Below, one piece after another: positions 42,440 through 64,000 of a stretch of DNA of 64,000 nt. Source of the DNA: an uncultured Gammaproteobacteria bacterium (GTDB taxonomy: Bacteria; Patescibacteriota; Microgenomatia; Levybacterales; UBA12049); NCBI GenBank assembly GCA_964408825.1, contig CAYPAU010000001.1:76789-140788 (forward strand), read 5' to 3'. Made by a program: the position numbers and the translations under genes. The notes under the pieces are model-generated. The model did no database searches. It was not told the origin of the DNA and saw nothing but the letters and a program-made list of their open reading frames with translations. Numbering within the stretch: position 1 is the stretch's first letter; each line of letters starts with the position of its first letter.

Positions 42440-42459
42440 GCCAATACTACGATAAATTT

Positions 42460-45624: not shown

Positions 45625-45633
45625 CGTTTGAAA

Positions 45634-45662
45634 TTGTAATTAAACCCAGATTAAGGTAAAAT
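45634..45662 (+). promoter_or_regulatory. Sigma70-like promoter for tRNA-Glu (TTGTAA-17-TAAAAT)
   Basis: Its -10 lies 10 nt upstream of the tRNA 5' end. It shares the GGTAAAATAA context with the tRNA-Gln promoter. Confidence 0.4.
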
Positions 45663-45672
45663 AATGGCAGTT

Positions 45673-45745
45673 GGCCCCATCGTCTAGTGGCCTAGGACGG
45701 CAGGTTCTCATCCTGCAAACCCGGATTCGACTTCCGGTGGGGTCA
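45673..45745 (+). tRNA. tRNA-Glu (anticodon CUC)
   Basis: Hand-folded: acceptor GGCCCCA/TGGGGTC, D-arm TCGTCTAGTGGCCTAGGAC typical of tRNA-Glu, anticodon loop UUCUCAU, T-arm CCGGA-TTCGACT-TCCGG, discriminator A. Confidence 0.8.
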
Positions 45746-46126: not shown

Positions 46127-46132
46127 AAGAGC

Positions 46133-46996: not shown

Positions 46997-47003
46997 GAGG
47001 AAA

Positions 47004-47474: not shown

Positions 47475-47499
47475 AAAAGGTTGCTTGATGTACGAGCTA

Positions 47500-48278: not shown

Positions 48279-49034
48279 GTGAACAACCCTTTTCTTTCTG
48301 TCGTCGTCCCCTCATATAATGAGCTTGGTAATCTTCATAAGGGAGTTCTGGATAAAGTTGATCATTATCTTTCTAGGCAAAAATACACATGGGAAGTAAT
48401 AGTGGTTGATGACGGCTCAACAGATGGAAGTGTAGAGTTTGTAGAAAATTTTGTTAAAGAAAATGAGGGATTTAGGGTGGTGAAAAACGGCCATACCGGA
48501 AAAGCAGGTGCCGTAACGCGCGGTGTTTTAGATGCAAAAGGAGAGATCATACTTTTTACAGACATGGATCAGGCAACTCCCATAGAAGAAATAGAAAAAT
48601 TTTTTCCTTCTTTCGAAAGAAACTTCGATATAGTTATTGGTTCGCGAAATTCCGAAAGAAAAGGAGCCCCATGGACAAGACTTGTTATGGCAAGGAGCAT
48701 GATGATACTCCGCACGCTAATAGTAGGAGTTTACGGAATTTCAGACACGCAGTGCGGGTTTAAAGCTTTTAGGAATGATGTCGCAAAGAAATTATTTAAA
48801 AAAATAAACGATATAAATAAAGGATTCAAACAAGTTACCGGATCACATGTGACTGCCGGATTTGATGTAGAACTTCTGTATCTTGCCCAGAAGTTGGGTT
48901 ACAGGATAAAAGAGGTACCTGTTAACTGGCTTTATGTAGAAACAAGAAGAGTAAGCCCTCTAAAAGATTCCATAGATGGCTTTTTCGATCTTTTCAAAAT
49001 AAAATTTAATTCTTTAAAAGGGACTTACGACTAA
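48279..49034 (+). CDS. GT2 glycosyltransferase (polyprenyl-phosphate sugar synthase-like, DPM1/GtrB type)
   Basis: LSVVVPSYNELGNL and VVDDGSTDGS. The GTG start lies about 7 nt after a perfect TATAAT -10, so the transcript is probably leaderless. Confidence 0.8.
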   Translation: MNNPFLSVVVPSYNELGNLHKGVLDKVDHYLSRQKYTWEVIVVDDGSTDGSVEFVENFVKENEGFRVVKNGHTGKAGAVTRGVLDAKGEIILFTDMDQATPIEEIEKFFPSFERNFDIVIGSRNSERKGAPWTRLVMARSMMILRTLIVGVYGISDTQCGFKAFRNDVAKKLFKKINDINKGFKQVTGSHVTAGFDVELLYLAQKLGYRIKEVPVNWLYVETRRVSPLKDSIDGFFDLFKIKFNSLKGTYD

Positions 49035-50225
49035 ATGTCGAAATTTAAATTTACCATTTTTCATTTACCATTTATCATTTTTTGTTATCTAATAGTTATC
49101 ATTGCTCTTTTTCTTTATTCTTTTACACAGATTGATTTAAGTTTGACTTTGACAGAGATTTCATGGTGGCAGGGGATTCAAAAATTTTTTCAGAACATCG
49201 GTTACTTTAACAGACCTCTTTCTGCGTTTTTTTATTTGACAATAACCACATTTCTGTTTGTTTTATATATTTTATTTTTGATACTTGCCAAAAGAAATAA
49301 ACTTTCATACAAAGCAGTATGGGGATTAGTTATTTTTACATCAGTGCTTCTTACCTTTTCCTATAATGCCTTTTCTTACGACCTTTTTAATTATATGTTT
49401 GATGCAAGAATCATAACCAATTATCAGCAGAACCCTTATCTTCATAAAGCCCTGGACTATCCGGGTGATCCCATGCTTTCTTTCATGCACTGGACACACA
49501 GGACTTATCCCTATGGTCCTTCATGGCTTATTCTTACGGTACCGCTTTCATTTATCGGAGGAAATTTTTTCCTTTTTACTTTTTTCATGTTCAAAGCCAT
49601 ATCCTCTTTAAGCTATTTGGGAACCGCATATTTTATTTCAAAAATATTAAAAAAAGTTAATACCGAGAATGCACTGCTTGGTCTTGTATTTTTTGCATTC
49701 AACCCCTTGGTTATAATTGAGGGCTTAGTTAGTGCTCACAATGACATGGCCATGATTTTTTTCGCGGTTTTTTCGTTGTATCTACTTTTAAATAGCCAAA
49801 AAATATTTTCGTTCTTGGGATTCCTATTTTCAATAGGAATAAAATTTGCAACCGTTTTTATGATACCGGCGTATATCTATTTTTTTATAAAGAAGAAAAT
49901 AGATAAGAGATTTTTTAAAATTTTATTTTTCTCGATGTTTATTCCTCTCATTTTTGTAACAATAAGAACAAATTATCAACCATGGTATCTTCTTTATATT
50001 CTTCCTTTTGCAAGTTTGGCCCCTCAAAAAAAATACACAATGGGAGCAGGAATTATTTTAGCTTTTTTCTCACTTATTCAATACATTCCCTTTCTTTATA
50101 CAGGGAATTGGGATAAGCCAATCCCACAGATTCTGTTTTATATCACAGTATCAGGCTTCGTAGTTTATCTTTTGTATTCTATGTTCGGAAGTCTAAATAT
50201 TTTAGGCAGGAAAATGCTAAAATAA
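49035..50225 (+). CDS. Polytopic membrane protein, possible GT-C glycosyltransferase (DUF2029/GT87-like?)
   Basis: 396 aa with about 10 transmembrane helices, inside the glycosylation cluster. Confidence 0.35.
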   Translation: MSKFKFTIFHLPFIIFCYLIVIIALFLYSFTQIDLSLTLTEISWWQGIQKFFQNIGYFNRPLSAFFYLTITTFLFVLYILFLILAKRNKLSYKAVWGLVIFTSVLLTFSYNAFSYDLFNYMFDARIITNYQQNPYLHKALDYPGDPMLSFMHWTHRTYPYGPSWLILTVPLSFIGGNFFLFTFFMFKAISSLSYLGTAYFISKILKKVNTENALLGLVFFAFNPLVIIEGLVSAHNDMAMIFFAVFSLYLLLNSQKIFSFLGFLFSIGIKFATVFMIPAYIYFFIKKKIDKRFFKILFFSMFIPLIFVTIRTNYQPWYLLYILPFASLAPQKKYTMGAGIILAFFSLIQYIPFLYTGNWDKPIPQILFYITVSGFVVYLLYSMFGSLNILGRKMLK

Positions 50226-50229
50226 TCTT

Positions 50230-51744
50230 ATGTTTGCTTTGCAAAAACTCTTTGTAAAATATAGATTTGAAATCCTTGCCTTTGCAGCACTTACAGCTTT
50301 GTATTTTTACCTTCGTTTATACAACGTAATGTCCCTTCCCATATTTACGGATGAGGCAATTTATGTAAGATGGTCACAAATTGCAAGATATGATCCTTCA
50401 TGGAGATTCATATCTTTAACGGATGGGAAACAACCTCTTTTCGTTTGGCTTGCCTTAAACGTTATGAGACTAGTTGAAGACCCTCTTTTTGCTTCAAGGC
50501 TTGTCTCAGTCGCAGCAGGATTTTTTACAATGGTAGGCTTGTTTTTCTTAGGGAGGGAAATCTTCAAAAACCGATTCGTAGGTTTAATTTCCTCCTTTCT
50601 GTATATACTGTATCCCTTTGCCTTAGTTTATGACCGCATGGCACTTTACGAGAGCTTGGTGGGTGTTTTTACTGTCTGGGCTCTTTATCTTGAAGTGCTT
50701 TTAATAAGAAGAATCCGCCTTGATGTCGCTTTGATATTAAGTATGGTTCTTGGCGCCGGAGTACTTACTAAGTCCTCCGCCTTTTTTAATATTTATCTTA
50801 TTCCCACCACGCTTCTTTTGTTCGATTTCAAAAATAAGAAATCAATGCTTTTTAGATGGGCTTTGTTAGTTATTGTTTCTACAGTTCTTGCCTATGGATA
50901 TTATTCGGTCTTAAGACTTTCCCCCTTTTTTCACATAGTTAATGAAAAAAACTCCATATTTGTATATCCTTTCAAGGAGTGGATTACTCATCCTTTCACG
51001 TATTTGAGAAGTAATTCAATGGGCCTTTTAGATTGGTTTTATAGCTATATGGGTTTGCCGGCAATTCTTTTAATAATCCTATCGTTTTTCATAAATACTA
51101 AATATTTGAAAGAAAAAATTCTTTTTTCCAGTTGGTTTGTGATTCCCTTTGTAGCTCTTATTTTTTTTGGTAAAACCCTTTACCCAAGATTTATCTTTTT
51201 TATGACGCTTTCGCTTTTGCCTCTGGTAGCTTTTTCGCTCTTTGAAATTTTTAATAAAATTAAAAAGAGATACTTAGCAATCCTTATCCTTGTAGTTTTC
51301 CTAATTCCTTTTTTAAGAACAGACTTTTATATTATTTCAGACTTTGCAAAAGCTCCTATAGCAAAGCCAGATATTCACCAGTACATCAATGACTGGCCGG
51401 CAGGAGGAGGCATTAAAGAAGCGGTTGATTATTTAGGGGAGCAAGCTAAGGAAAGAAAAATCCATGCGGCTTCCCTTGGCACTTTTGGTTCTCTTCCTAC
51501 TTATTCAATAGAGATTTATTTAGGAGACAATAATAATGTAGATAGAGGAGGTATTTTCCCCGTGCCCTCAGAAATACCAAAAGAACTATTGGAAAAGGCA
51601 AAGAAGATACCAGTTTTTCTTCTTGTTTCAAATCAGAAGGAATTTGAGAATAATATAAAAACCTGGCCTCTTAAGCTTATTTTTGAAATAAAAAAGGGCG
51701 AGGGAGATTCATTCACACGGCTTTATAGAGTAAAAGCTTCTTAA
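50230..51744 (+). CDS. ArnT/PMT-family GT-C membrane glycosyltransferase
   Basis: N-terminal loop with a DE motif (IFTDEAIYVRW); polytopic; 504 aa. Confidence 0.6.
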   Translation: MFALQKLFVKYRFEILAFAALTALYFYLRLYNVMSLPIFTDEAIYVRWSQIARYDPSWRFISLTDGKQPLFVWLALNVMRLVEDPLFASRLVSVAAGFFTMVGLFFLGREIFKNRFVGLISSFLYILYPFALVYDRMALYESLVGVFTVWALYLEVLLIRRIRLDVALILSMVLGAGVLTKSSAFFNIYLIPTTLLLFDFKNKKSMLFRWALLVIVSTVLAYGYYSVLRLSPFFHIVNEKNSIFVYPFKEWITHPFTYLRSNSMGLLDWFYSYMGLPAILLIILSFFINTKYLKEKILFSSWFVIPFVALIFFGKTLYPRFIFFMTLSLLPLVAFSLFEIFNKIKKRYLAILILVVFLIPFLRTDFYIISDFAKAPIAKPDIHQYINDWPAGGGIKEAVDYLGEQAKERKIHAASLGTFGSLPTYSIEIYLGDNNNVDRGGIFPVPSEIPKELLEKAKKIPVFLLVSNQKEFENNIKTWPLKLIFEIKKGEGDSFTRLYRVKAS

Positions 51745-51745
51745 T

Positions 51746-54136
51746 ATGTACGAGAAAATCCGCTTGTTTTCCTTTCGGAACAAGATTTTTTTATTTATAG
51801 TTCTAATTGTTTTATTTTTCTTCTGGCCCGTTTTTAAAGGCGATATTCCTTTTCCTGGAGATACGCTTGTAGGATTTTATGAACCTTATAAAGCTTATCC
51901 AATACTGGGTTTTTCTCCCGGGAGTGTACCTAATAAAGCACAGGGACCGGATGTTATAAAAGAACTGTTCCCATGGAAAAATTTTGTCATAGAGTCTTTA
52001 AGGCAAGGACAGGTTCCTTTTTGGAATCCTTACAATTTTTCAGGAAATCCTCTTATGGCAAATTTTCAATCGGGGACATTTTACCCTCCTAATGTTATTT
52101 TTCTCATTTTTCCTTTCACGATTTCCTGGACAATCTTTATTCTTCTTATTCCAATTTTGGCTTCTTCTTTCACCTACCTTTTCCTGCGAGAGCTAAATTT
52201 AAGTAAAACCTCAAGTTTTTTCGGAGGCATTGTTTTTGCATTTTCTTCCTATATGGTTGTTTGGCTTCAATATGGAAATATAGGTCATACCTTGTTATGG
52301 ATTCCGCTGGGACTTTTAATAACTGAAAAATTAATAAAGAAATTTGAATGGAAATTTTTATTTTTTCTAACTCTTATTTTATGGTTTTCTATCCTCGCAG
52401 GGTATATTCAAGGCTATTTCTATTCAGCGAGTCTAATATTTGCATATTTTCTTTTTAAAGGTTTTACGGAAGGAAAGATTAATCTCAGAAGATTCTTGTA
52501 TTTTATAACTGCATTAATTTCTCCAGTTGCTCTTTCTCTTTTCCAGATCTTGCCCACGATTGAATTATTTAATGCATCTTCAAGATCGGACTATACTCTC
52601 TCCCAAATCCAAAATTTACTTAATCCCTGGTGGTACGCAATAACTGCTATAGCACCTAATTTTTTCGGAAATCCGGCAACATTTAATCATTGGTTCTGGG
52701 GAACTTATATTGAAAGAGTTTCATACATTGGTCTTGTTCCTTTTATTCTTTTTTTGTCCGCTGTTTTATCCTTCAAAAGAAGAAAAGAAAAATTATTCTT
52801 CGGGGTAGTTGCAATACTTAGCTTCATTATATCACTTGATCTTTTTATAACAAAATATTTTTTTAAAATACCAGTTCCTATTATATCAACAGCCGTACCG
52901 ACCAGAATTCTGAGTCTATTCCAATTCTCCGCGGCGATTCTTTCAGCTTTTGGGCTTGAATATTTTTTGAAAAATCAAGGAAAGAGAAAATTTTACATTG
53001 CTACATTTATCACCCTTTTTCTTATTGGTCTATCATGGATGCTCGCATTTTTCGGAGGAGAAATCTTTCAGATCGACCCAGTAAATCTATCAATATCTAA
53101 AAAAAATTTAATTATTCCCACTTTTCTAGCAATTGCTTTTCTCTTAGTGATTTATATCTGGTTTAAAACTAAATCAAAATTAACTATTTTTGCAATTTTA
53201 TTACTTACTATTTTTGATCTATTTTATTTTTTCCAAAGAATTACCCCATTTTCACCTCCTGAGTTTACTTATCCTGAGACACCAGTTGTTAGGTATCTTA
53301 AGGAAAATGGTTCAATAAACAGATTTTGGGGATATGGTTCAGGATATATCGAAAGCAATTTCCAACTAATGGATAAGACTTTTTCACCGGAAGGGAATGA
53401 CCCTTTGCATATTAGGACATACACAGAGCTTCTTTCCTCATCTAAAAATGGAAAGCTTTCAGAGAATCTTCCTCGTCCGGATGCCAATATTGAAAGAGGT
53501 TTTGGAGAGAAAAATCTGCGCGAAAATAAATATCGTCAGAGATTGCTTAATCTTTTGGGAGCAAAATATGTTCTCCATAAGACAGGCTCAGATTCTCCTG
53601 ATTACACTACTTTTCCCGATAGAATTTATCGGTTGGTACAAAGTGACGGATATTATCAAATTTATGAGAATAAAGAAGTTTTGCCAAGATTTTTCCTAAC
53701 GGGAGATTATACAGTTGAGGATGATGAGGGAAAAATTATATCCCTTATTTATGATGAAGACATAGATCTTAAAAAAACCTTAATTCTTAAGGAAGACCCC
53801 AAAATCAATATTGATAAAAATTCAAAAGGGGTAGCACAGCTTATAAATTACTTACCAAATAAGGTTTCTGTTAAGACAAAAAGTAATGGAAATAGTTTAC
53901 TATTTATATCGGATACCTATTATCCCGGGTGGGAAGTAAAAATCGATAATACGCCCTCACAGATTATACTTTCTGATTATGCATTCAGAGCCGTACCAGT
54001 TGAGGAAGGCGAACATATTGTAGAATTTTTATATAGACCAAAGAGCTTTTACAAGGGTTTAACTCTCTCCCTTTTTAGTTTAATTATTTTGGCTCTTTTT
54101 TTATCTTATGTCAGGAATCTTGAAAAAAAACTTTAA
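51746..54136 (+). CDS. YfhO-family membrane protein (GT-C-like glycosyltransferase)
   Basis: 796 aa; WNPYNFSGNPLMANFQSGTFYPPN and about 13 transmembrane helices plus a C-terminal extracytoplasmic domain. Paralogous to 62106..>64000. Confidence 0.6.
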   Translation: MYEKIRLFSFRNKIFLFIVLIVLFFFWPVFKGDIPFPGDTLVGFYEPYKAYPILGFSPGSVPNKAQGPDVIKELFPWKNFVIESLRQGQVPFWNPYNFSGNPLMANFQSGTFYPPNVIFLIFPFTISWTIFILLIPILASSFTYLFLRELNLSKTSSFFGGIVFAFSSYMVVWLQYGNIGHTLLWIPLGLLITEKLIKKFEWKFLFFLTLILWFSILAGYIQGYFYSASLIFAYFLFKGFTEGKINLRRFLYFITALISPVALSLFQILPTIELFNASSRSDYTLSQIQNLLNPWWYAITAIAPNFFGNPATFNHWFWGTYIERVSYIGLVPFILFLSAVLSFKRRKEKLFFGVVAILSFIISLDLFITKYFFKIPVPIISTAVPTRILSLFQFSAAILSAFGLEYFLKNQGKRKFYIATFITLFLIGLSWMLAFFGGEIFQIDPVNLSISKKNLIIPTFLAIAFLLVIYIWFKTKSKLTIFAILLLTIFDLFYFFQRITPFSPPEFTYPETPVVRYLKENGSINRFWGYGSGYIESNFQLMDKTFSPEGNDPLHIRTYTELLSSSKNGKLSENLPRPDANIERGFGEKNLRENKYRQRLLNLLGAKYVLHKTGSDSPDYTTFPDRIYRLVQSDGYYQIYENKEVLPRFFLTGDYTVEDDEGKIISLIYDEDIDLKKTLILKEDPKINIDKNSKGVAQLINYLPNKVSVKTKSNGNSLLFISDTYYPGWEVKIDNTPSQIILSDYAFRAVPVEEGEHIVEFLYRPKSFYKGLTLSLFSLIILALFLSYVRNLEKKL

Positions 54137-55643
54137 ATTTATTTTTATATTTCTTTCCGTTTTATTAGTGGTTCCAGGTGTCGTAGGACTTTTACATTCA
54201 GGTTTTCCCTTAACCGATGACGGCAACTGGATGGTTATAAGGTTTTCCGCATTTTATGAGGCTTTTAGGAACGGACAATTTCCCGTAAGATTTCTTCCGC
54301 GTTTAAATAATGGATTCGGTTATCCGGTTTCTAATTTTCTTTATCCTCTTTTTATGTATATAGGCATCCCGATTCATCTTGCGGGCTTTAGCTTCGTAGA
54401 TACCATTAAGGTAATCATGGGGGGCAGTTTAATTTTTTCTTCTTTATTCACATTTTTGTGGCTTAGAAAGATATTTGGATCAATTGCATCTTTGGTCGGA
54501 GCGGTCTCCTACTCATTATTTCCGTATCATTTATATGATTTATATAAAAGAGGATCTGTTGGAGAGCTTCTTGCTCTTTCTATTGTCCCGTTTATTCTTT
54601 GGGGGATAGAAAAGAGAAACTTGGCTATTTCCTCTTTAGGATACGGTCTTCTGATCCTCTCACATAACACTTTGGCAATTTTATTTATTCCTACTATTTT
54701 TATATATCAACTCTTAAGGTATAAATTTTCCCTAAAGTCCTTAATGCCCCTTCTTCTTGGTCTTTCTCTTTCTGCCTTTTTTTCAGTGCCCGCTCTATAC
54801 GACAGGCAATATACAATTTTTAGTCAAGTTAAAATATCAGATTATTCCATGTATTTCGTTAACTTCGACAATTTGAATTTATACGGCTTAATATTCTTTA
54901 CATCGATCGCTGCCTCTTTCTATTTATTAATTAAAAACAAAGGAAAAACTAATATTTATTTTTTGATACTTTCACTGTTAGCCCTATTAATAACAATTCC
55001 TAAAGCTGTTCCAGTCTGGGAATTTACATTTTTGCAAAATTATATTCAGTTCCCATTTAGATTCGTCTCAATTGCTGTTTTATCGTCCTCTTTTCTTCTC
55101 GCGTCATTTTTGGATTTATTTAAGGTAAGAAGATTAATCTTTGCCTTTATAATCTTAATTATAATTTATTTATCCAGCCTAAACTTTATTTATCCTAAAG
55201 TTTTTCAATACCATCCGGATACCTTTTACTCTACCAACCAAGACACAACTACAGTCAAAAACGAATATATGCCAAAATGGGTCAAGAAAATACCAACTAG
55301 AAGATACGAAAGCAAGGTCGAGATTATCAATGGAGAAGGTGAGATTAAAGATTTTAAAGATTCAGGCAATAGGGTTTCATTTATATATGTATCTAAAGAG
55401 CCGTCCTTACTTGCGCTTAATACTATATATTTCCCAGGCTGGAAGCTAAGTATTGATAAAAAAAATTCTCAAATTTTATACAATAATGAAGGAGGTCTTA
55501 TTCAATTTAAGGTAGACCGCGGTAAGCATTTTATTGAAGCAAAATTCGGAGAAACCGGAGTAAGACTTTTAAGCGATCTTGTATCGCTGGGGAGTCTTTT
55601 TGTGCTTTTGTACTTGTCTTTAAAAAGAAAATATTTAATATGA
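54108..55643 (+). CDS. Uncharacterised polytopic GT-C-like membrane protein (paralogue A)
   Basis: FPLTDDGNWMVIRF...GQFPVRFLPRLNNGFGYPVSNFLYPLFMY; resembles the next gene. Confidence 0.4.
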   Translation: MSGILKKNFKFIFIFLSVLLVVPGVVGLLHSGFPLTDDGNWMVIRFSAFYEAFRNGQFPVRFLPRLNNGFGYPVSNFLYPLFMYIGIPIHLAGFSFVDTIKVIMGGSLIFSSLFTFLWLRKIFGSIASLVGAVSYSLFPYHLYDLYKRGSVGELLALSIVPFILWGIEKRNLAISSLGYGLLILSHNTLAILFIPTIFIYQLLRYKFSLKSLMPLLLGLSLSAFFSVPALYDRQYTIFSQVKISDYSMYFVNFDNLNLYGLIFFTSIAASFYLLIKNKGKTNIYFLILSLLALLITIPKAVPVWEFTFLQNYIQFPFRFVSIAVLSSSFLLASFLDLFKVRRLIFAFIILIIIYLSSLNFIYPKVFQYHPDTFYSTNQDTTTVKNEYMPKWVKKIPTRRYESKVEIINGEGEIKDFKDSGNRVSFIYVSKEPSLLALNTIYFPGWKLSIDKKNSQILYNNEGGLIQFKVDRGKHFIEAKFGETGVRLLSDLVSLGSLFVLLYLSLKRKYLI

Positions 55644-57352
55644 GAATTTTAGAACGGATTTTATTTCCGGTAGTGTTACTGATTCTTTCTTACCCTCTTA
55701 TAAATCATCTTTTTGCACCGGGGTTTTTTCCTATTCACGACAACACTCAAGTTCAAAGAGTATTTGAAATGGCCAAGAGCTTATCTGAGGGGATGTTTCC
55801 CGTAAGATGGGTTTCTGACTTGGGATACGGATATGGATATCCAATTTTCAATTTTTATGCCCCTCTGTCATATTATGTCGGTTCGTTTTTTGTGCTCTCA
55901 GGTTTTGACTCTCTTTTTGCAACAAAGCTTATGATGGCGCTGGGCGTTTTGACTTCTGGTTTTACTATGTATTTACTTTCGAAAACATTATGGGGAAGAG
56001 TTGGAGGCTTAATCTCTGCGCTATTTTATCTATATGCTCCATATCATGCTCTTGATATCTATGTGAGAGGAGACATTTCTGAATTTTGGGCATATGCATT
56101 TATTCCTTTAGTATTCTATTCACTTATAAAAACCCTTAATAACAGAAGGTATATTGTTCTTGGTGCCTTTTCATACTCGTTTGTTATCCTTTCTCACAAT
56201 CTTACGGCATTTATGTTGACTCCTTTCCTGATTTTATTCGCTTTAATTTTTTACCCTTCCTTTAAAGAGAAAATTCTGATACCCTTTTTTCTAATTATTC
56301 TTGCAGGACTAGGCTTATCTTCGTTTTATACTCTTCCTGCAATTTTTGAAGCAAAATATACTAACATAATTTCACAAGTCGGTGGAGGAGCCGATTTTAA
56401 TGATCACTTTGTTTGTCTTTCTCAATTTTGGCAAAGTCCGTGGGGTTTTGGGGGTTCTGCCTCAGGTTGCATAGATGGGATGTCTTTTCAGCTTGGAAAA
56501 CTCCATTTCCTTTCTTTTATAGCGGCTTTTGGTCTTTTTTTAATGTCGGCAGTAAATAAAAGGTTTAAATTAAATGAAATCTTAAGAAAGGATAAAATAA
56601 TATATGGTTTTACACTTTTTTCTCTTGTTGGATTTATTCTCTCGGTTTTCTTAATGATTAATATGTCAAAATTTGTTTGGGAGGCAGTTCCTTTTATGGA
56701 ATTTCTTCAATATCCATGGAGGTTTCTTACCTTTGCCTCATTTTTTATGTCATTAGTTTCGGGAATCCTAGTCTTAAGTATAGATCTGTTTGTTTTCAAA
56801 ACAAAAAAGGGAAAATTAAGTATTATTTTTCCGGTTTTTTTAATAATAATCTTACTTTATATTAATGCCAAATTTTTTATCCCTCAGACTCTTATAGATC
56901 AAACAGGCAAAGATCTGACAAGTAAAAATAATTTAGTATGGAATACTTCGAGAATTTCAGATGAGTATATGCCAAAAAATTTTAACAAGCCAAAATCTTT
57001 GGAAGATGTTCCAAAAGGAAAGATTTCAAAGGAGGAGGGCATTCAGGCGCTCTACGAAGATTCAGGTGTTTCATTCCTTCATGCAACGGTTAAGGCAGAG
57101 AAAGATCAAAAAGCAATAATAAATACAGCATATTTTCCCTCATGGACGGGATTTTTAGATAACAAAAGAGTTGCTCTTAATAAAGAAGATTCGGGAATGT
57201 CGGTCAAGATTCCAAAGGGAGTCCATTCACTAGATCTTTTTTTCGTTGAAACGCCAATCGAAAAGCTTGGAAATTCTATTAGCCTCGCTTTTTTATTTAT
57301 TATCTTTGTTAGTATAATTATTCCTGCAAAGATACCCAAATATGAAAAATAA
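55640..57352 (+). CDS. Uncharacterised polytopic GT-C-like membrane protein (paralogue B)
   Basis: FFPIHDNTQVQRVF...GMFPVRWVSDLGYGYGYPIFNFYAPLSYY; same family as 54108..55643. Confidence 0.4.
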   Translation: MRILERILFPVVLLILSYPLINHLFAPGFFPIHDNTQVQRVFEMAKSLSEGMFPVRWVSDLGYGYGYPIFNFYAPLSYYVGSFFVLSGFDSLFATKLMMALGVLTSGFTMYLLSKTLWGRVGGLISALFYLYAPYHALDIYVRGDISEFWAYAFIPLVFYSLIKTLNNRRYIVLGAFSYSFVILSHNLTAFMLTPFLILFALIFYPSFKEKILIPFFLIILAGLGLSSFYTLPAIFEAKYTNIISQVGGGADFNDHFVCLSQFWQSPWGFGGSASGCIDGMSFQLGKLHFLSFIAAFGLFLMSAVNKRFKLNEILRKDKIIYGFTLFSLVGFILSVFLMINMSKFVWEAVPFMEFLQYPWRFLTFASFFMSLVSGILVLSIDLFVFKTKKGKLSIIFPVFLIIILLYINAKFFIPQTLIDQTGKDLTSKNNLVWNTSRISDEYMPKNFNKPKSLEDVPKGKISKEEGIQALYEDSGVSFLHATVKAEKDQKAIINTAYFPSWTGFLDNKRVALNKEDSGMSVKIPKGVHSLDLFFVETPIEKLGNSISLAFLFIIFVSIIIPAKIPKYEK

Positions 57353-58055
57353 AATTCCCGAGCTTTCTGTTTTTTTTCCTTTCTGGAACGAGGAGAAAAA
57401 CATAGAAAATGTTGTTAAAAAAGCAATACCGGTCGTCGAAGAAGTTTCTAAGAAATGGGAAATGATTATAGTCGATGACGGTTCCTCCGATAAAACTTTA
57501 AAAATTGCAAAAGAGTTTGCAAAAGAAAACCCAAATATTCGCATCGTAAGTCACGATCGCAATAGGGGCTATGGGGCATCCTTAAAATCCGGTTTTGAAA
57601 ATGCAAGATATAGCGTAATAGTTTTTACAGACGGTGATGGTCAGTTTGATTTTAAGGAGATTGATGGGTTTTTAGGAAAAATTGATAAAGCTGATATTGT
57701 TATCGGATATAGAAAAAAAAGATATGACAACCCCATTCGTCATGTCCTGATGAACATGCTTAAAATATGGGATTTATTTTTCTTTGGCTTTTGGTTCAGG
57801 GATATTGACTGCGGATTTAAAATGTTTACTAAAAAAGCATTGCTTAAGATCGCTCCACTTAAATCCGAAGGGGCAATGATAACGACTGAAATTTTAGCAA
57901 AGGCAAGAAAGACAAAACTTAAAATTGAACAAGTCGAAGTGACACATTATCCAAGATTCTATGGAGATCAAAGCGGAGGAAATTTAAGAGTAATAGTAAG
58001 AGCTATTAGAGAAAGTTTTGCCCTCTTTAGAGAGCTAAATTATGGAAGACATTGA
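57342..58055 (+). CDS. GT2 glycosyltransferase (DPM1/ArnC-like)
   Basis: FFPFWNEEKNI, IIVDDGSSDKT, and a DxD motif (TDGDGQFD). Confidence 0.8.
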   Translation: MKNKIPELSVFFPFWNEEKNIENVVKKAIPVVEEVSKKWEMIIVDDGSSDKTLKIAKEFAKENPNIRIVSHDRNRGYGASLKSGFENARYSVIVFTDGDGQFDFKEIDGFLGKIDKADIVIGYRKKRYDNPIRHVLMNMLKIWDLFFFGFWFRDIDCGFKMFTKKALLKIAPLKSEGAMITTEILAKARKTKLKIEQVEVTHYPRFYGDQSGGNLRVIVRAIRESFALFRELNYGRH

Positions 58056-59496
58056 CCTTCTTCTTATAAAAAAAAGATCTATTCGTGGAATCTTTGCCCT
58101 CTCGTCCCGGACCTTATTCATACAAATTTTGGGGTTTGTGGCAAATCTTTTCCTTACTATTTTTCTTGCGCCTTCGGTTTTTGGCGTATATTTCGTAGTT
58201 TCGGCGGCGGTTGCTTTCTTATCGTACTTTTCAGACATTGGACTTGCTGCAGCTTTAATTCAGAAAAAAGAATCTGTAACCGAGGAAGATCTTCGGACAA
58301 CTTTTACAATTCAACAGGTTTTGGTTCTTGCAGTTGTGGTTGTCGCTCTTTTTTCCTCGGGGTTTATTAAAGGATTTTACAAACTTGATAATGAAGGGAT
58401 TTTTCTTTTTCAAGCACTAATAATCTCTTTTTTCCTTTCATCTCTTAAGACTATTCCTTCAATAATTCTTGAAAGAAGTCTTAAGTTTGATAAACTTGTT
58501 ATACCACAGATCGTTGAGAGTCTTTTTTTTAATATAACTGCGGTTTTCCTGGCAATAAAAGGTTTTGGGATAACGAGTTTTACCATAGCGGTACTTCTGC
58601 GGGGAGTGGTTGGTCTTATTGCCATTTATATTATCAGTCCTTGGAAAATAGGTTTTAGTCTGTCATCAAATTCTGCCAAAAAATTATTGTCCTATGGTAT
58701 TCCTTTTCAGGCAAATAGTTTTCTTGCTCTTATAAAAGATGATCTTCTGATTGCATATCTTGGAAAGGTATTACCACTTTCTCAAGTAGGATTCGTAGGT
58801 TTTGCCCAGAAATGGGCTTTTATGCCCCTTCGCCTTATAATGGACAATATTATAAGAATAACTTTTCCTTCATTTTCAAGACTTCAGGAAGATAAAAAAG
58901 TTCTCGGAAAGGCAATAGAGAAATCTATTTTTGTATCAGCATTTTTAATATTTCCCGCACTTACCGCTCTAATTTTTTTGGCCCCTTCCCTTACAAAAAT
59001 TATCCCAAGATATGAAAAATGGGAACCTGCGCTTATGTCAGTTACTTTTTTTTCTCTAAATGCCTGTCTTTCATCTATATCTACCCCTCTTACAAATACT
59101 TTAAATGCAATAGGGAAAATTAAGACTACCCTTTATTTAATGGTCTTCTGGACATCATCAACTTGGATACTTACGCCTTTTTTTATTAATATTTTCGGCT
59201 ATAACGGGGTTTCTATAGCGTCCTTTCTTATAGCAACTTCTGTTTTTATCGTAATATACTTGGTAAAAAAATACGTTGATTTCAACTGGACTGTGGTTTT
59301 CTATCCTTTAACTTCCTCTGTCTTTATGGGTGTAGTTCTGTATTGGCTGACACGTTTTTTGCCTCAGAATATTTATTACCTTAGCTTTTCTCTTGTCCTT
59401 GGACTTATAATATATTTTGGGAGTATATTTATACTTGCAAAAGATATGGTGCTTTCGGATATCAGGTTAATAAAAGAAAATATTTTTAGAAAATGA
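58042..59496 (+). CDS. Polysaccharide biosynthesis protein / oligosaccharide flippase (Wzx, MOP superfamily)
   Basis: 484 aa with about 12-14 transmembrane helices and a Wzx-like N-terminal region. Confidence 0.7.
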   Translation: MEDIDLLLIKKRSIRGIFALSSRTLFIQILGFVANLFLTIFLAPSVFGVYFVVSAAVAFLSYFSDIGLAAALIQKKESVTEEDLRTTFTIQQVLVLAVVVVALFSSGFIKGFYKLDNEGIFLFQALIISFFLSSLKTIPSIILERSLKFDKLVIPQIVESLFFNITAVFLAIKGFGITSFTIAVLLRGVVGLIAIYIISPWKIGFSLSSNSAKKLLSYGIPFQANSFLALIKDDLLIAYLGKVLPLSQVGFVGFAQKWAFMPLRLIMDNIIRITFPSFSRLQEDKKVLGKAIEKSIFVSAFLIFPALTALIFLAPSLTKIIPRYEKWEPALMSVTFFSLNACLSSISTPLTNTLNAIGKIKTTLYLMVFWTSSTWILTPFFINIFGYNGVSIASFLIATSVFIVIYLVKKYVDFNWTVVFYPLTSSVFMGVVLYWLTRFLPQNIYYLSFSLVLGLIIYFGSIFILAKDMVLSDIRLIKENIFRK

Positions 59497-60413
59497 AAAA
59501 AATTTCGGCAGTAATTACAACCTTTAATGAGGAGAGAAAAATTGAGGACTGTTTAAAATCTGTTCGCCAGTTGGCGGATGAGATTATCCTTGTTGATGGA
59601 TCTTCGACCGATGATACAGTGAAGATTGCTAAAAAATATACTTCAAAAATTTACATTCGAGAAAATAATCCCATGCTGAATGTCAATAAAAACTATGGTT
59701 TTATGAAAGCAACTAATGAATGGATCCTAAGTCTTGATGCAGATGAACGAGTTACTCTCGAACTTGCGAAAGAGATAAAAGAGATTCTTAAGTCTCCTGT
59801 CTTAAGTCTTAAATCTGATCTCAATGGCTATTATGTTCCCAGGAGAAATTTCATTTTTGGCAGATGGATAAAACATGCTGGATGGTACCCTGATTATCAA
59901 CTGAGATTATTTAAGAGGGGAAAAGGTAGATTTGAGGAAAAGCATGTACATGAAATGCTTAATGTCGAAGGTAAAACAGGGCATCTAAAATCTGATATTC
60001 TCCACCTTAACTATGAAAATGTTTCTCAGTTTTTAAAAAAACTTCTACTATATACGCAAAATGAGGCAGAGCAACTATTGGGAAGTGGATATATTTTTGA
60101 CTGGCGTGACTGTCTGAGAATGCCTTTCAAGGAATTCTTAAGCCGCTTTTTTGCAAGAAAAGGATATAAAGATGGACTTCATGGTCTAGTGTTATCTCTC
60201 CTAATGGCTTTTTACCACTTAATAGTTTTTACCGTCATTTGGGAAAAGACCAAATTCAGAGAATATGATAGCGAGAATTTTTTAAAGGAAACTACCGAAG
60301 AAATTGGTAAAGCAAAGAAAGAGTTTTCGTATTGGCTTAAAAAAGAAAATTCAAACAATGCAAGAAATCCAATCGAAAGAAGCCTTCAAAAGATAACAGA
60401 CAAATTATCCTAA
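59493..60413 (+). CDS. GT2 glycosyltransferase
   Basis: ISAVITTFNEE, ILVDGSSTDDT, LDADER. Confidence 0.8.
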   Translation: MKKISAVITTFNEERKIEDCLKSVRQLADEIILVDGSSTDDTVKIAKKYTSKIYIRENNPMLNVNKNYGFMKATNEWILSLDADERVTLELAKEIKEILKSPVLSLKSDLNGYYVPRRNFIFGRWIKHAGWYPDYQLRLFKRGKGRFEEKHVHEMLNVEGKTGHLKSDILHLNYENVSQFLKKLLLYTQNEAEQLLGSGYIFDWRDCLRMPFKEFLSRFFARKGYKDGLHGLVLSLLMAFYHLIVFTVIWEKTKFREYDSENFLKETTEEIGKAKKEFSYWLKKENSNNARNPIERSLQKITDKLS

Positions 60414-60422
60414 AATTATTTT

Positions 60423-61331
60423 GTGTTAAAAGTTTTTGTAACAATAATCACCTTTAATAGTCACAATGCAACACTTGAGTGTTTGGAAAGTGTTGAGAGG
60501 ATTGAGAAGAAAGGTTTCGAACTTTTTGTTAACGTTATCGATAACGGTTCAAGAGAAGTTTTTAAGACTAAAAATGAATATAAAAATTTCGTTCTTAAAA
60601 TTTTAAGATCCGATCAAAACCTGGGGTTTTCAGGAGGGCAAAATCTTGGAATTAAACAAGCCCTTAGGGATGGAGCAGATTATATAGTCGTTTTGAATAA
60701 CGATACGATTCTCGATAAAAATTTGATAGTTTCTCTTATAACAACATTTAAAGAAGGCATGGGTATTGTTTCTCCCAAAATATACTTTGCAAAAGGATAT
60801 GAATTTCATAAAGAAAGATATAGCGAGAAAGAAAAGGGTAAGGTTTTTTGGTATGCAGGAGGTATATTTGATTGGAGCAATATGATAGCAAGCCACAGAG
60901 GCGTAGACGAGGTCGATAAAGGACAATATGACAAGCTTTCGGAGATTGATTTTGCTACAGGTTGCTGTATGGCAATAAGGAGTGATGTTTTTGAGAGGGT
61001 AGGTTTTTTTGATGAGAAATATTTTTTATATCTTGAAGACAGCGACTTGTCAAATAGACTGAAAAAAAAGGGTTTAAAGATTATTTATCAGCCAGAGGCA
61101 GTCCTTTGGCATAAAAACGCTTCATCGGCGGGTGGATCTGGATCTATCTTGCAAGACTACTATATTACAAGAAACAGACTACTATTTGGTTTCAAATACG
61201 CTAATTTAAGGACAAAGCTGGCCCTGATAAGAGAAAGTGTCAAAATTATAATCTCTGGAAGAAGATGGCAAAAACAAGGAGCAATTGATTTCTACTTAGG
61301 TAAATTTGGAAGAGGAAGTTTTAATCCATGA
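60423..61331 (+). CDS. GT2 glycosyltransferase (rhamnosyltransferase-like)
   Basis: VTIITFNSHN and VIDNGSRE, with a DxD-like motif. Confidence 0.75.
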   Translation: MLKVFVTIITFNSHNATLECLESVERIEKKGFELFVNVIDNGSREVFKTKNEYKNFVLKILRSDQNLGFSGGQNLGIKQALRDGADYIVVLNNDTILDKNLIVSLITTFKEGMGIVSPKIYFAKGYEFHKERYSEKEKGKVFWYAGGIFDWSNMIASHRGVDEVDKGQYDKLSEIDFATGCCMAIRSDVFERVGFFDEKYFLYLEDSDLSNRLKKKGLKIIYQPEAVLWHKNASSAGGSGSILQDYYITRNRLLFGFKYANLRTKLALIRESVKIIISGRRWQKQGAIDFYLGKFGRGSFNP

Positions 61332-62131
61332 AAATTTCGGCAGTTGTAATTGCAAAAAATGCAGAAGATGTAATAAGAGAATGTTTTTCATCGTTGAAAT
61401 TCTGTGATGAAATTATAGTTGTAGATAATGGGTCTTCCGATAAAACTTCCGATATTGCAAGAGAATTTGGAGCTAAAGTTATTTCGGAAAAATCGGCCGA
61501 TTTCTCAAAGCTTAGAAATGCTGGCTTAAAAGAGACTTCTTTTGACTGGATTTTATATATTGACTCTGACGAAAGAGTTCCGAAGGAGCTTTCGGAAGAA
61601 ATATTGTTAAAAATAAAAAATCCGGAAGAGCTTGTGGCTTTTAGAATAAAAAGAAAAAATTATTATCTTGGTTCTTTAAAGTTGAATGAATGGCCGTTTA
61701 AAGAGAAGCTTGAGAGATTATTTAAGAAACAGTACTTAAAGGGATGGCAAGGTAAGATCCACGAAAGCCCAATTGTGGAGGGTGAAATCGGAGATTTAGA
61801 AAACTGTCTTCTTCATTTTACCCATCGGGATTTAAGTCAAATGCTTACCAAAACCATTGAGTGGTCTGAGATTGAAGCTGACCTTCGTTTTAAAAGTGAC
61901 CATCCGGTAATGTCTTGGTGGAGATTCCCGAAAGTGATATTTTCTGCCTTTTTTGAATCTTACTTTAAGCAAGGTGGGTATAAGGCTGGTACAGTAGGAA
62001 TTATAGAAAGTATATATCAAGCATTCAGTGCTTTTATTACATACGCAAAGTTATGGGAAAAACAGCAGGAGAGCAAAATTCCCGCTTCGCAGCGAGGCGA
62101 GCAAAATGCAAAAGTCAAAAATACAAGTTAA
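61328..62131 (+). CDS. GT2 glycosyltransferase
   Basis: ISAVVIAKNAEDVI, IIVVDNGSSDKT, IDSDER. Confidence 0.8.
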   Translation: MKISAVVIAKNAEDVIRECFSSLKFCDEIIVVDNGSSDKTSDIAREFGAKVISEKSADFSKLRNAGLKETSFDWILYIDSDERVPKELSEEILLKIKNPEELVAFRIKRKNYYLGSLKLNEWPFKEKLERLFKKQYLKGWQGKIHESPIVEGEIGDLENCLLHFTHRDLSQMLTKTIEWSEIEADLRFKSDHPVMSWWRFPKVIFSAFFESYFKQGGYKAGTVGIIESIYQAFSAFITYAKLWEKQQESKIPASQRGEQNAKVKNTS

Positions 62132-64000
62132 AATTCAAAATCTTTTATTTAAGTTTTGGCCGCTACTATTTATAGTAATTGTCTGGTCTGTTTTCGCAAG
62201 TCCGTATTTTTTAAAGAATCTTGTTCCGTTCCCCTCAAATTACCTTGTTAATTTTTTTCCGCCCTGGGCATCATATGGAGAATTTGCAGGGCCTGTAAAA
62301 AATAATGCAATGCCGGATATTATATCCCAGATTTATCCTTGGAAAAAACTGACCATAGACTCCCTTAAGAGTGGCGAAATTCCTTTTTGGAATCCTTATA
62401 GTTTCTCCGGAAATCCCCATCTTGCAAATTACCAATCGGGAGTTCTCTCCCCTTTTAATCTTATTTTTTTTATACTTCCGTTTGTTGATGCATGGAGTGT
62501 CCTTATTTTACTTGCGCCCCTTCTCTCGGGTTTTTTTACTTATCTTCTTATGAGAAGTTTAAATGTCTCGAAATTAGGATCAACTTTAGGCGGTATCGTA
62601 TTTATGTTTTGTGGTTTTATGGTAGTATGGATGGCTTATGGGACATTATCTTATGCTATACTTTACCTTCCCTTAGCGTTTTATGCGATTCAAAATTTTG
62701 CAAATAGCAAAAAAATTAGATATTTAATACTCCTTTCTCTAACAATTCCTTTTTCTTTTTTTTCGGGTCATTTTCAAATAAGTTTTTATTTTCTAATCTC
62801 AATATTTGTTTTTTTACTCTTTAGGATCTATAAAGAAACACTTAAAACCAAATTTTTTCTTACAACAGCACTGTTTACAGGCATTCTTTTATCTATGCCT
62901 CAGCTTCTACCTTCCTGGGAACTTTATACGCATTCTATAAGAAAGGCAATTTTTCGCTTAACGGAGACAGTACCAATAGGGTATATAATTACATCCTTTG
63001 CTCCTGATTTTTATGGCAATGCCGTTACCCGCAATGATTGGTACGGACATTATGCCGAGTGGGCTTCTTTTGTGGGAATAATTTCTCTTATTCTTGCCAC
63101 AATTTCTTTTCTTAAGCCAAAAAAGGAGATTATATTTTTTGGGATTTTAGGTCTTGCATCACTTCTTCTTAGCCTTCAGACTCCACTTGCTGAATTAATT
63201 ATCAATCTTAAGATACCAGTCGTTTCAACAAGTGCCCTATCAAGAATAATAGTAATTTTCAGTTTTTCGGCAGCAGTTCTTGCAGGATATGGACTGGATA
63301 TTCTTAAAGAATATATAGTAAAAAGCAAATCAAAAAGAATAATTGTTGTATTTTCCGCCTGGATAGTTTTTATCTTTCTAATTTGGACATCTCTTTTCTT
63401 TTTCCCTCTTTTGCCACCCGAGAAGATACTTATAGCAAAGCGAAATATGATACTTCCAACACTTATCTTAACCCTGGGGTCTCTTACTGTTCTCACGTCC
63501 TTTTATATAAGAAAATTTGCTTTAGTTTTTTTATTTGGACTTTTGATTCTTACCTCCTTGGATAGTCTAAGGTTTGCTCAAAAATGGATGCCGTTTGATC
63601 CTAAAAAATATGTTTTTCCTACCCCCCCCGTTGTAAAAGCTCTTCAAAAAGAAACAAGAGGAGTTGACAGAGTTTTTGGAAATATAGGCGGAGAGCTTGT
63701 AAATTACTACAAACTTCCCGGAGTTGAGGGATATGACCCGCTATATATTGAAAGATACGGAGAATTTTTAAGAAGTGGAGTCGTGGGACATTTCGCTCCA
63801 CCTGAGAGATCTGTTGTAAAGTTGGGAAGAAGCGGGGAAAATACAGATAAGATTATAGATCTGTTGGGTGCTAGTGTAATTTTCCATCCAAATGCTGACA
63901 CCGGTCAGGAGTGGGCGTATCCAGTTTGGAAAAATACCGATAGGTTTGTCCCCATTTATAAAGATGGAAGTTTTCAACTTTACAGAAACAATACTGCTCT
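62106..64000 (+). CDS. YfhO-family membrane protein, second paralogue; partial, running off the window end
   Basis: Open frame from ATG 62106 (MQKSKIQVKIQNLLFKFWPLLF...) with PFWNPYSFSGNPHLANYQSGVLSPFN matching the first YfhO. No stop before 64000. Confidence 0.55.
   Translation, partial: MQKSKIQVKIQNLLFKFWPLLFIVIVWSVFASPYFLKNLVPFPSNYLVNFFPPWASYGEFAGPVKNNAMPDIISQIYPWKKLTIDSLKSGEIPFWNPYSFSGNPHLANYQSGVLSPFNLIFFILPFVDAWSVLILLAPLLSGFFTYLLMRSLNVSKLGSTLGGIVFMFCGFMVVWMAYGTLSYAILYLPLAFYAIQNFANSKKIRYLILLSLTIPFSFFSGHFQISFYFLISIFVFLLFRIYKETLKTKFFLTTALFTGILLSMPQLLPSWELYTHSIRKAIFRLTETVPIGYIITSFAPDFYGNAVTRNDWYGHYAEWASFVGIISLILATISFLKPKKEIIFFGILGLASLLLSLQTPLAELIINLKIPVVSTSALSRIIVIFSFSAAVLAGYGLDILKEYIVKSKSKRIIVVFSAWIVFIFLIWTSLFFFPLLPPEKILIAKRNMILPTLILTLGSLTVLTSFYIRKFALVFLFGLLILTSLDSLRFAQKWMPFDPKKYVFPTPPVVKALQKETRGVDRVFGNIGGELVNYYKLPGVEGYDPLYIERYGEFLRSGVVGHFAPPERSVVKLGRSGENTDKIIDLLGASVIFHPNADTGQEWAYPVWKNTDRFVPIYKDGSFQLYRNNTA

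Follow-up and report, generated by a model that had tools for sequence, protein, structure and literature searches.

The last 16 kb (48279 to 64000) of the 64,000-nucleotide stretch analysed here, which is referred to as the window (positions 76,789 to 140,788 of the forward strand of contig CAYPAU010000001.1, assembly GCA_964408825.1, GTDB order Levybacterales of the Patescibacteriota), hold twelve genes, g01 to g12, to which we give about an even chance of encoding the stepwise assembly of a conserved cell-surface glycan outside the membrane from lipid-linked sugars. They encode five family 2 glycosyltransferases (GT2), one Wzx/MOP-family flippase and six polytopic proteins of the glycosyltransferase C (GT-C) type, and the general idea of extracytoplasmic glycosylation from lipid-linked donors, previously proposed for this cluster from the bare sequence (the original prediction), fits this inventory. 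The open reading frames (ORFs) lie where they had been placed, all on the plus strand, with eleven complete and the twelfth (62106..64000) without a stop codon up to 63998. The junctions from g01 to g12 measure 0, +4, +1, -29, -4, -11, -14, -4, +9, -4 and -26 nt, in agreement with the claim of tightly packed and often overlapping genes, and this arrangement of abutting or overlapping genes on one strand suggests a single transcription unit. A sigma-70-like element, TTGTAA-18-TATAAT, ends 7 nt upstream of the g01 start codon, as a consensus match only.

A scan of one genome per species gave 29 loci with a relative of g05, all from Levybacteria/Levyibacteriota or unclassified Patescibacteria metagenome-assembled genomes, and tblastn with all twelve proteins was used to compare them. 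All twelve genes are present with unchanged order and orientation in 10 of the 29 loci, at 44–74% amino-acid identity; at least five further loci keep the order with an insertion, inversion or substitution, and most others are cut by contig ends. This gene-for-gene conservation across species is unlike the strain-variable loci for capsules and O-antigens. The cluster had been described as spanning 48279 to 64000, and its genes are as stated, but the locus runs on beyond the window edge. In three relatives (L032, L033 and L034), from which the genes past the edge were read, g12 is followed by a DUF5652 gene on the minus strand, a GT4 gene and a third YfhO gene (~760 aa), and next by a ~315-aa GT2, a third DPM1-like GT2 (~235 aa) and then either a GT87 gene or one to four PMT_2 genes, with a DUF2079 gene in addition in L032. 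Judged from these relatives, the window shows only the first ~16 kb of a 25–40 kb locus, which in its extended form has at least ten GT-C genes in some genomes.

The presence of five GT2 enzymes and a Wzx flippase is borne out by Pfam, with 59.6–101 bits to PF00535 for the former and 165 bits to PF13440 (Polysacc_synt_3) for g08, which further matches PF01943 at 74 bits and, among NCBIfam models, an MOP flippase (E=9e-30), an O-glycosylation flippase (E=2e-28) and TuaB. A single DPM1-like GT2, g07, had been named; its kinship to ArnC, GtrB and dolichol-phosphate mannose synthase (DPMS) stands, but g01 is DPM1-like as well. The best solved relative of g01 is the P. furiosus dolichol-phosphate mannose synthase 5mlz (E=6.7e-15), followed by GtrB and ArnC, and that of g07 is ArnC 9bhc (E=5.7e-16, residues 5–217), followed by GtrB and DPMS; the best NCBIfam models for g07 are PgfS (E=1.1e-20, 74 bits against a cut-off of 500) and ArnC. 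The two are paralogues (31% identity, E=1e-22), with D95-x-D97 invariant in 21 orthologues of g01 and D97-x-D99 invariant in g07, and by homology both are candidate synthases of lipid-sugar donors. Neither contains a hydrophobic or transmembrane (TM) segment that would be a membrane anchor, and no partner subunit was identified for either; human DPM1 relies on DPM2/3.

The remaining GT2 enzymes fall into two types. Paralogues g09 and g11 (33% identity, E=3e-40) both have GmaR as best solved relative (22ao, E=2e-18, then SunS, for g09; E=1.2e-16 for g11), and g09 has one hydrophobic segment, at residues 231–249. Beside PF00535 (59.6 bits), g10 matches PF13641 (58.4 bits), the NCBIfam rhamnosyltransferase model TIGR01556 (E=5.5e-16, under its cut-off) and GlfT1 (E=1.7e-8), and its best solved relative is a galactofuranosyltransferase (9dtp, E=2e-6). 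The DxD motif is invariant in four of the five GT2 families (D82-x-D84 in g09, D79-x-D81 in g11), and g10 has a single invariant Asp (D94) at that site.

All six polytopic proteins are placed among GT-C enzymes, as had been proposed, through Pfam and NCBIfam families, hhalign and fold models, g02 with moderate confidence. Two of them, g05 and g06 (54108 and 55640), were said to be assignable to no named family and to represent a possible novel GT-C clade, neither of which can be upheld. That they are related is clear: BLASTP aligns them at 28% identity over ~500 residues (E=2e-51), their family profiles match in hhalign with 100% probability (E=3e-74; profiles were built from the 29 related loci), and the shared motif that had been noted is present literally in both, as DDGN...FPVRF...GFGYPVSNFLYPL in g05 and DN...FPVRW...GYGYPIFNFYAPL in g06. 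The start of g06 overlaps the stop of g05 by 4 nt, and g06 directly follows g05 in 24 of the 29 loci. Whereas g06 passes PF10131 (PTPS_related) with 33.7 bits (E=1.8e-8, gathering cut-off 26.4), g05 itself lies under detection, with no Pfam match (none at E<=0.01) and no NCBIfam match; among 46 orthologues of g05, which are 46–66% identical to it, 29 match PF10131 (best E=3.9e-16) and 25 match YfhO weakly. The own sequences of g05 and g06 gave no YfhO (PF09586) match in the Pfam scan. At the level of profiles, hhalign connects the pair to YfhO-1, or g04 (97.4% for g05 and 97.5% for g06, E ~1e-11), and to YfhO-2, or g12 (93% and 96.3%), and the pair and the YfhO genes have in common N-terminal G-Q-x-P-(F/V) and G-x-P elements and a C-terminal beta-sandwich with TM anchor. 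At 511 and 570 aa, g05 and g06 are without the long first-outer-loop insertion of full YfhO architecture, so the kinship is at superfamily level only.

Searching 1.84 billion cluster representatives (50% identity level) with the g05-family profile yielded 16,402 at E<=1e-3 and 4,015 at E<=1e-30, and some g05 relatives already bear the NCBI name '6-pyruvoyl-tetrahydropterin synthase-related protein'. Four representatives (P0255, P0306, P0332 and P0334) are 1,093–3,329 aa long and match the profile in 3–5 stretches; these would be tandem GT-C genes that have fused, or else artefacts of gene calling that read through adjacent paralogues. Because g06 passes PF10131, orthologues of g05 match it, hhalign reaches YfhO and the family numbers 16,402 representatives, we regard g05 and g06 as short members of the large PF10131/YfhO superfamily with a predicted GT-C fold, and a novel GT-C clade is ruled out by the same kinship and family size. 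PF10131 is listed in the GT-C clan CL0111 as 'function unknown' (PMC7801869), and membership gives no mechanism beyond the clan.

The fold prediction is in keeping with this placement. The AlphaFold2 model of g05 (pLDDT 91.4, pTM 0.90) has ~11 TM helices, a small outer beta-sandwich and a final TM helix, and its Foldseek ranks 1–26 in the PDB are all GT-C, which supports the GT-C relation that had been proposed for testing by structure prediction. The order is STT3 (E=5e-6), AftD, AglB, PglB, ArnT, AftA, ALG12, Emb and DPY19, with best TM-scores of 0.42–0.48, and MFS/SLC transporters are listed only at probability <=0.25 and a TM-score of ~0.1; a transporter identity for the pair was rejected on the all-GT-C top 26. 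The GT-C assignment extends to g06 through its homology to the modelled g05. Solved structures searched by sequence with g05, g06 and the g05-family profile gave only unrelated proteins (best E 2–3). Invariant in 46 sequences of g05 are D37, D38, R45, F58-P59-x-R61 and G71-Y72, and in 19 orthologues of g06 the dipeptide H33-D34. The D37-D38 pair sits between model helices 2–29 and 39–54, i.e. just after TM1, and the Lys/Arg-rich N-termini of both proteins would place this post-TM1 loop outside by the positive-inside rule. No WWDxG or related motif was found in any of the six GT-C proteins, and an oligosaccharyltransferase role for g05/g06 was rejected as unlikely on the absence of WWDxG and on a match to STT3/PglB no better than that to ArnT/AftD.

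Family evidence is of varied strength for the other four GT-C proteins. The product of g02, predicted as a membrane protein, has 9–11 hydrophobic helices and no match in the local Pfam copy; it (P0121) and all 120 listed homologues carry the precomputed PF26314 MptA_B_family, some together with PF09594 (GT87), and its weak NCBIfam matches are MptA (E=8.5e-12; TIGR03459, 44.7 bits against a cut-off of 439) and MptB (E=3e-6, 26 bits against 40). Residues D34, D116 and D123 are invariant, and on the Pfam and NCBIfam family evidence g02 is taken as a GT-C protein with moderate confidence. The PMT/ArnT-like assignment of g03 is confirmed by PF13231 (PMT_2; 37.4 bits, cut-off 26.1), with a D41-E42 'DE' pair after TM1 that is invariant in 22 orthologues. 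Both YfhO paralogues are likewise confirmed. At 796 aa and 96.7 bits to PF09586 (cut-off 28.5), g04 has the full-length YfhO architecture (~750–850 aa, long first outer loop, large C-terminal outer domain), with D39 and D69 invariant and a C-terminal TM anchor at 771–789. The window fragment of g12 reaches only 21.1 bits, under the cut-off; the full-length protein from the same contig (P0393, 780 aa) carries PF09586, and the g12 and g04 families match in hhalign with 100% probability (E=8e-112). The position of g12 that matches g04 D39 (FPGDT) is Asn (FPSNY) and is not a conserved acidic residue in 13 orthologues; D71 of g12 is invariant and equals the second Asp of g04, D69. This pattern suggests that the second Asp would be the essential one, or that g04 and g12 may differ in mechanism. 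Acidic residues of the post-TM1 loop are thus invariant in all six GT-C families (D34 in g02, D41-E42 in g03, D39 and D69 in g04, D37-D38 in g05, D34 in g06 and D71 in g12); the original prediction had named a transporter fold or the lack of such acidic loop motifs as what would speak against it, and what was found is the reverse of both.

In the proposed assembly line, g01 and g07 would transfer monosaccharides from nucleotide sugars to polyprenyl phosphate on the inner side of the membrane, g09, g10 and g11 would act in the cytoplasm to prime a lipid-linked oligosaccharide or build it up, and g08 would flip the lipid-linked sugar to the outer face. There, six GT-C enzymes of four sequence types (MptA_B g02; PMT_2 g03; YfhO g04 and g12; short YfhO/PF10131 g05 and g06) would add sugars from polyprenyl-phosphate donors, each for a different linkage or acceptor site and each using the conserved Asp in its first outer loop. 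That the donor of g05/g06 would be a polyprenyl-phosphate sugar is taken from the context of g01 and g07 in the operon, and the donor chemistry, the step order and the acceptor are all inferred. A single complex glycan, built sequentially, is favoured over independent decorations or a variable capsule because the ratio of GT-C to donor synthase genes is at least 3:1 (six to eight against two per operon), the GT-C enzymes are diverse and the genes are conserved one for one across the lineage. Since six to eight GT-C enzymes share two donor synthases, several linkages would be formed from the same donors, as happens in lipomannan synthesis and in the luminal part of eukaryotic lipid-linked oligosaccharide synthesis. 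As g02 is an MptA_B member and g10 is WbbL/GlfT-like, a lipid- or wall-linked heteroglycan comparable to lipomannan/arabinogalactan or to the decorated wall polysaccharides of Gram-positives appears somewhat more likely as the product than glycosylated proteins, a tilt drawn from family names; characterised MptA/MptB and WbbL/GlfT relatives act on lipid-linked glycans. As g05 and g06 are constantly adjacent and translationally coupled, it may be speculated that they act as a heterodimer like EmbA-EmbB or Pmt1-Pmt2. A bolder version, which we think unlikely, would make the operon a bacterial counterpart of the luminal lipid-linked oligosaccharide pathway of eukaryotes and archaea or of mycobacterial lipoglycan synthesis, with g05/g06 either forming a heterodimeric polymerase or making the last transfer, onto protein or wall.

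The logic proposed for the operon is known from other bacteria. In the Gram-positive scheme, the C55-P-sugar produced by a GT-A enzyme is moved by a flippase, after which a GT-C enzyme transfers the sugar outside, and documented variants include the Wzx-type flippase GacK and the anchorless GT-A enzyme GacI, which needs its partner GacJ (PMC8035078). The CsbB-GtcA-YfhO, GtlA/GtlB, GacI/J/K/L and lactococcal CsdA-F systems (PMC8035078, PMC5836110) follow the same sequence from GT2 through flippase to a GT-C of YfhO or PMT_2 type. These are, however, modules of one GT2 and one GT-C that decorate a polymer made elsewhere, whereas here six GT-C enzymes share two donor synthases; the operon has three extra cytoplasmic GT2 enzymes and no GtrA/GtcA-type flippase, and beside it lie no genes for a teichoic-acid or rhamnan backbone. 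The streptococcal Pgf systems (PgfS/PgfM1/PgfM2; GtrB/PgtC2; bioRxiv 10.1101/2024.05.05.592596) likewise combine a GT2 with YfhO-family GT-C enzymes that have a catalytic acidic motif in an outer loop. In comparison, equivalog scores lie far under the cut-offs (PgfS: 74 bits, cut-off 500; PgfM2: 27.5 bits, cut-off 1500), and the operon has more GT-C genes of more types and is without adhesin or Ser/Thr-rich substrate genes.

Two further systems are closer in the number of GT-C steps. The Corynebacteriales set for lipomannan, lipoarabinomannan and arabinogalactan comprises Ppm1; PimE, MptA, MptB and MptC; WbbL and GlfT1/2; and EmbA/B/C and AftA-D. Common to it and the scheme proposed here are cytoplasmic glycosyltransferase steps (GT-A/GT-B in Corynebacteriales), flipping and serial GT-C reactions fed by the polyprenyl-phosphate sugar of a DPM1-like GT2; moreover g02 is of the MptA_B family, g10 resembles WbbL/GlfT1 and the g05 fold matches AftD/AftA/Emb. 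The mycobacterial genes are scattered in the genome, in contrast to the one operon found here with YfhO/PF10131 proteins in place of Emb/Aft; the homology to MptA/MptB is weak, and no inositol-lipid or decaprenyl-arabinose genes were seen. With the eukaryotic and archaeal lipid-linked oligosaccharide pathway (DPM1, ALG5, Rft1, ALG3/9/12/6/8/10, STT3/AglB) the operon shares two lipid-phosphate-sugar synthases, a flippase candidate and multiple GT-C proteins, the top folds for g05 being STT3/AglB and the weak fold matches of g02 including ALG9, ALG12 and PIG-M. It differs in having no WWDxG and no ALG7/WecA-type initiator seen, and its sequence kin are YfhO/PF10131, not the ALG families.

Several observations weigh against a surface glycan built in this way. 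No initiating phosphoglycosyltransferase (MraY/WecA or Bac_transf), Wzy or LCP ligase was found among the larger ORFs scanned with Pfam, which cover most of the window, nor in the ~10 kb downstream in the three relatives; the lipid-linked oligosaccharide branch is incomplete as seen, and models with a lipid-PP-oligosaccharide are weakened. The best PDB folds for the AlphaFold2 model of g02 (pLDDT 82, pTM 0.86), GPI mannosyltransferase I (PIG-M), ALG12, ALG9 and PimE, are weak matches (E>=0.028, TM-score 0.38), and no experimental or biochemical work on any PF10131 member was found in the literature. Moreover, protein O-glycosylation is proven for enzymes of the YfhO and PMT types too, and GmaR and SunS, the solved proteins to which g09 and g11 lie closest, glycosylate proteins or peptides. 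These last points lead to the main rival, a possible if doubtful one, which is general protein O-glycosylation: g01 and g07 would make the donors, PMT_2, YfhO and PF10131 enzymes would transfer onto Ser/Thr-rich secreted or membrane proteins (S-layer, pili, adhesins), and other GT-C enzymes would elongate. The streptococcal YfhO-family enzymes PgtC2 and PgfM1, with GtrB or PgfS, modify Ser/Thr-rich disordered regions (bioRxiv 10.1101/2024.05.05.592596), PMT_2 is named for protein O-mannosyltransferases, and the PgfS match of g07, the O-glycosylation flippase match of g08 and the missing polymerase and wall ligase all lean the same way. Those NCBIfam matches, however, are all far under the family cut-offs, the MptA_B and WbbL/GlfT-like members point to lipid-linked acceptors, and 6–13 GT-C genes per locus are far above any known bacterial O-glycosylation system. 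No Ser/Thr-rich acceptor gene was found in or beside the operon. Two exported or membrane-anchored proteins in the window that have no Pfam match, at 29810-31462 (+, 550 aa) and 24511-25560 (-, 349 aa), each have an N-terminal hydrophobic helix, and neither is Ser/Thr-rich.

A route like that of eukaryotes and archaea, in which a lipid-PP-oligosaccharide is made inside, flipped by Wzx as an Rft1 analogue, extended outside by GT-C enzymes and transferred as a block to protein or wall by, e.g., g05/g06, is improbable. The inventory mirrors the luminal half of that pathway, with two DPM1-like synthases as analogues of DPM1 and ALG5, an MOP-type flippase, cytoplasmic glycosyltransferases and many GT-C proteins, and STT3, AglB and PglB are among the best structural matches of g05; against this stand the absent WWDxG, TM-scores to STT3/PglB that ArnT and AftD, which are not oligosaccharyltransferases, equal, the absent initiating transferase and the fact that characterised members of the YfhO/PF10131 sequence family transfer single sugars. 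It is highly improbable that the locus is an ordinary strain-variable Wzx/Wzy locus for capsule, exopolysaccharide or O-antigen-like polymer, as might be read from a Wzx flippase beside several GT2 genes and sugar-nucleotide genes in the same window. Such loci normally vary between strains, whereas order and content here are kept across species only ~50% identical; GT-C enzymes dominate the locus, and of the full pathway only Wzx is present, with no Wzy, chain-length regulator, initiating transferase or LCP ligase found in the window scans or downstream in the three relatives. That g05/g06 are transporters or structural membrane proteins and not enzymes is scarcely credible: g05 matches no Pfam or NCBIfam model and the literature holds no direct biochemistry on the family, but the 26 top-ranked folds, the invariant D37-D38 at the GT-C catalytic-loop position and the homology to YfhO all argue for enzymes.

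Variants of the operon are seen among the relatives. In one version, PMT_2 and YfhO-1 are separated by a third paralogue of the g05/g06 pair, X3 (553 aa, 26% identity to g06); in others, the space between YfhO-1 and g05 has gained one or two PMT_2-like GT-C genes. Expanded versions reach eight GT-C genes. In two relatives a type I phosphodiesterase/nucleotide pyrophosphatase (PF01663, 119 bits), absent from the window, stands between g10 and g11 and might add or remove a phosphate-linked glycan substituent. A number of operon-bearing records (L003, L005, L006, L008 and others) name an 'uncultured Gammaproteobacteria bacterium' or a 'Candidatus Pacearchaeota archaeon' in their titles, labels that gene order and ~50% identity to the Levybacteria loci indicate to be wrong. 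Upstream, L030/L031 lack the ~3.3 kb (44917 to 48129) that in the window separate Lon (42430-44880) from the operon; in these two loci a 169-aa ORF stands between Lon and the first GT2. The window's extra stretch includes a gene for a DedA protein; DedA proteins are undecaprenyl-phosphate recyclers.

A second glycosylation locus lies at 62-10426 on the plus strand (Table 1). Its genes at 62-7617 cover the synthesis of dTDP-rhamnose, UDP-glucuronate and GDP-6-deoxyhexose and are likely to be the sugar supply for the main operon, and the overlapping pair at 7698-10426 is the window's third lipid-sugar synthase and seventh GT-C. An ABC-2 permease and ABC ATPase pair is encoded at 16950-18675 (-); transporters of this type are teichoic-acid and polysaccharide exporters in other bacteria, and by analogy the pair could be an alternative glycan exporter.

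Table 1. Genes of the operon, other features of the window and corresponding features of related loci (coordinates of L-numbered loci are their own).
Feature	Coordinates	Strand	Description	Basis
g01	48279..49034	+	soluble GT2, DPM1/GtrB/ArnC-like candidate polyprenyl-phosphate-sugar synthase, 251 aa	PF00535 101 bits
g02	49035..50225	+	MptA_B-family polytopic membrane protein (putative GT-C, GT87/PimE/PIG-M-like), 396 aa	PF26314 precomputed
g03	50230..51744	+	PMT_2 (ArnT/PMT-like) GT-C, 504 aa	PF13231 37.4 bits
g04 (YfhO-1)	51746..54136	+	YfhO-family GT-C, 796 aa	PF09586 96.7 bits
g05 (X1)	54108..55643	+	short YfhO/PF10131-type predicted GT-C, 511 aa	AlphaFold2 fold, orthologue Pfam matches, hhalign
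g06 (X2)	55640..57352	+	PF10131 PTPS_related predicted GT-C, g05 paralogue, 570 aa	PF10131 33.7 bits
g07	57342..58055	+	soluble GT2, ArnC/GtrB/DPM1-like candidate polyprenyl-phosphate-sugar synthase, 237 aa	PF00535 97.7 bits
g08	58042..59496	+	Wzx/MOP-family flippase, 484 aa, ~12 TM	PF13440 165 bits
g09	59493..60413	+	GT2, GmaR/SunS-like subgroup, 306 aa	PF00535 74.4 bits
g10	60423..61331	+	GT2, rhamnosyl-/galactofuranosyl-transferase-like (WbbL/GlfT type), 302 aa	PF00535 59.6 bits
g11	61328..62131	+	GT2, g09 paralogue, 267 aa	PF00535 75.3 bits
g12 (YfhO-2)	62106..64000	+	YfhO-family GT-C, cut by window end; full protein 780 aa	PF09586 on full length
g12 versus g04 N-terminal comparison	62106-62615 vs 51746-52255		compared N-terminal regions	
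RmlA	62-796	+	second glycosylation locus	
NUDIX protein	between RmlA and RmlB-like	+	second glycosylation locus	
RmlB-like	1274-2284	+	second glycosylation locus	
RmlD	2397-3215	+	second glycosylation locus	
UDP-glucose dehydrogenase	3305-4594	+	second glycosylation locus	
Epimerase/dehydratase	4664-5662	+	second glycosylation locus	
GDP-mannose 4,6-dehydratase	5741-6649	+	second glycosylation locus	
Fcl-like epimerase	6646-7617	+	second glycosylation locus	
DPMS-like GT2	7698-8831	+	fused to GtrA-type TM domain; second glycosylation locus	
PMT_2 GT-C	8828-10426	+	overlaps the 7698-8831 gene; second glycosylation locus	
DedA/VTT-domain protein	44917-45624		within 3.3-kb stretch before operon	
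tRNA-Glu(CTC)	45673-45746		within 3.3-kb stretch before operon	
Small GIY-YIG protein	45774-46085		within 3.3-kb stretch before operon	
Two metallo-beta-lactamase-fold genes and one GNAT gene		-	within 3.3-kb stretch before operon	
Expanded operon examples	L030 4315-5976 and 8335-10023; L017 8267-9928; L015 4055-5782 and 8129-9817		related loci	
PF01663 insertion	L001 12872-14137; L002 17247-18509		related loci	PF01663
Downstream continuation	L032 12213-22235; L033 12329-18905; L034 12597-22286		related loci, after g12	

No component of the operon falls outside the known superfamilies, and the combination of GT-A enzyme, flippase and GT-C enzyme is an established class of mechanism. In literature searched for Patescibacteria or the Candidate Phyla Radiation (CPR) together with YfhO, GT-C, mannosyltransferase or S-layer glycosylation, no description of the locus was found; what is not described there is the gathering of six to more than ten GT-C genes and shared donor synthases in one conserved operon, its occurrence in minimal-genome Patescibacteria and the constant pairing of PF10131 proteins. 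To our knowledge, almost nothing is known experimentally of the Patescibacteria envelope. These bacteria have minimal genomes, of ~1 Mb in the Levybacteria type, and many live attached to other cells. The operon devotes 16 kb to one glycosylation route, which makes its product a strong candidate for a core structure of the cell surface in this lineage. In its extended form the locus reaches 25–40 kb, a few percent of the genome, and its genes are kept one for one across species only ~50% identical. For PF10131, the operon supplies a concrete and testable context, consisting of the g05/g06 pairing, the YfhO neighbours, the two donor synthases and the invariant Asp-Asp loop. If the bolder version given above is true, the glycan would be a lineage-defining component of the envelope and possibly the surface with which these cells contact their hosts.

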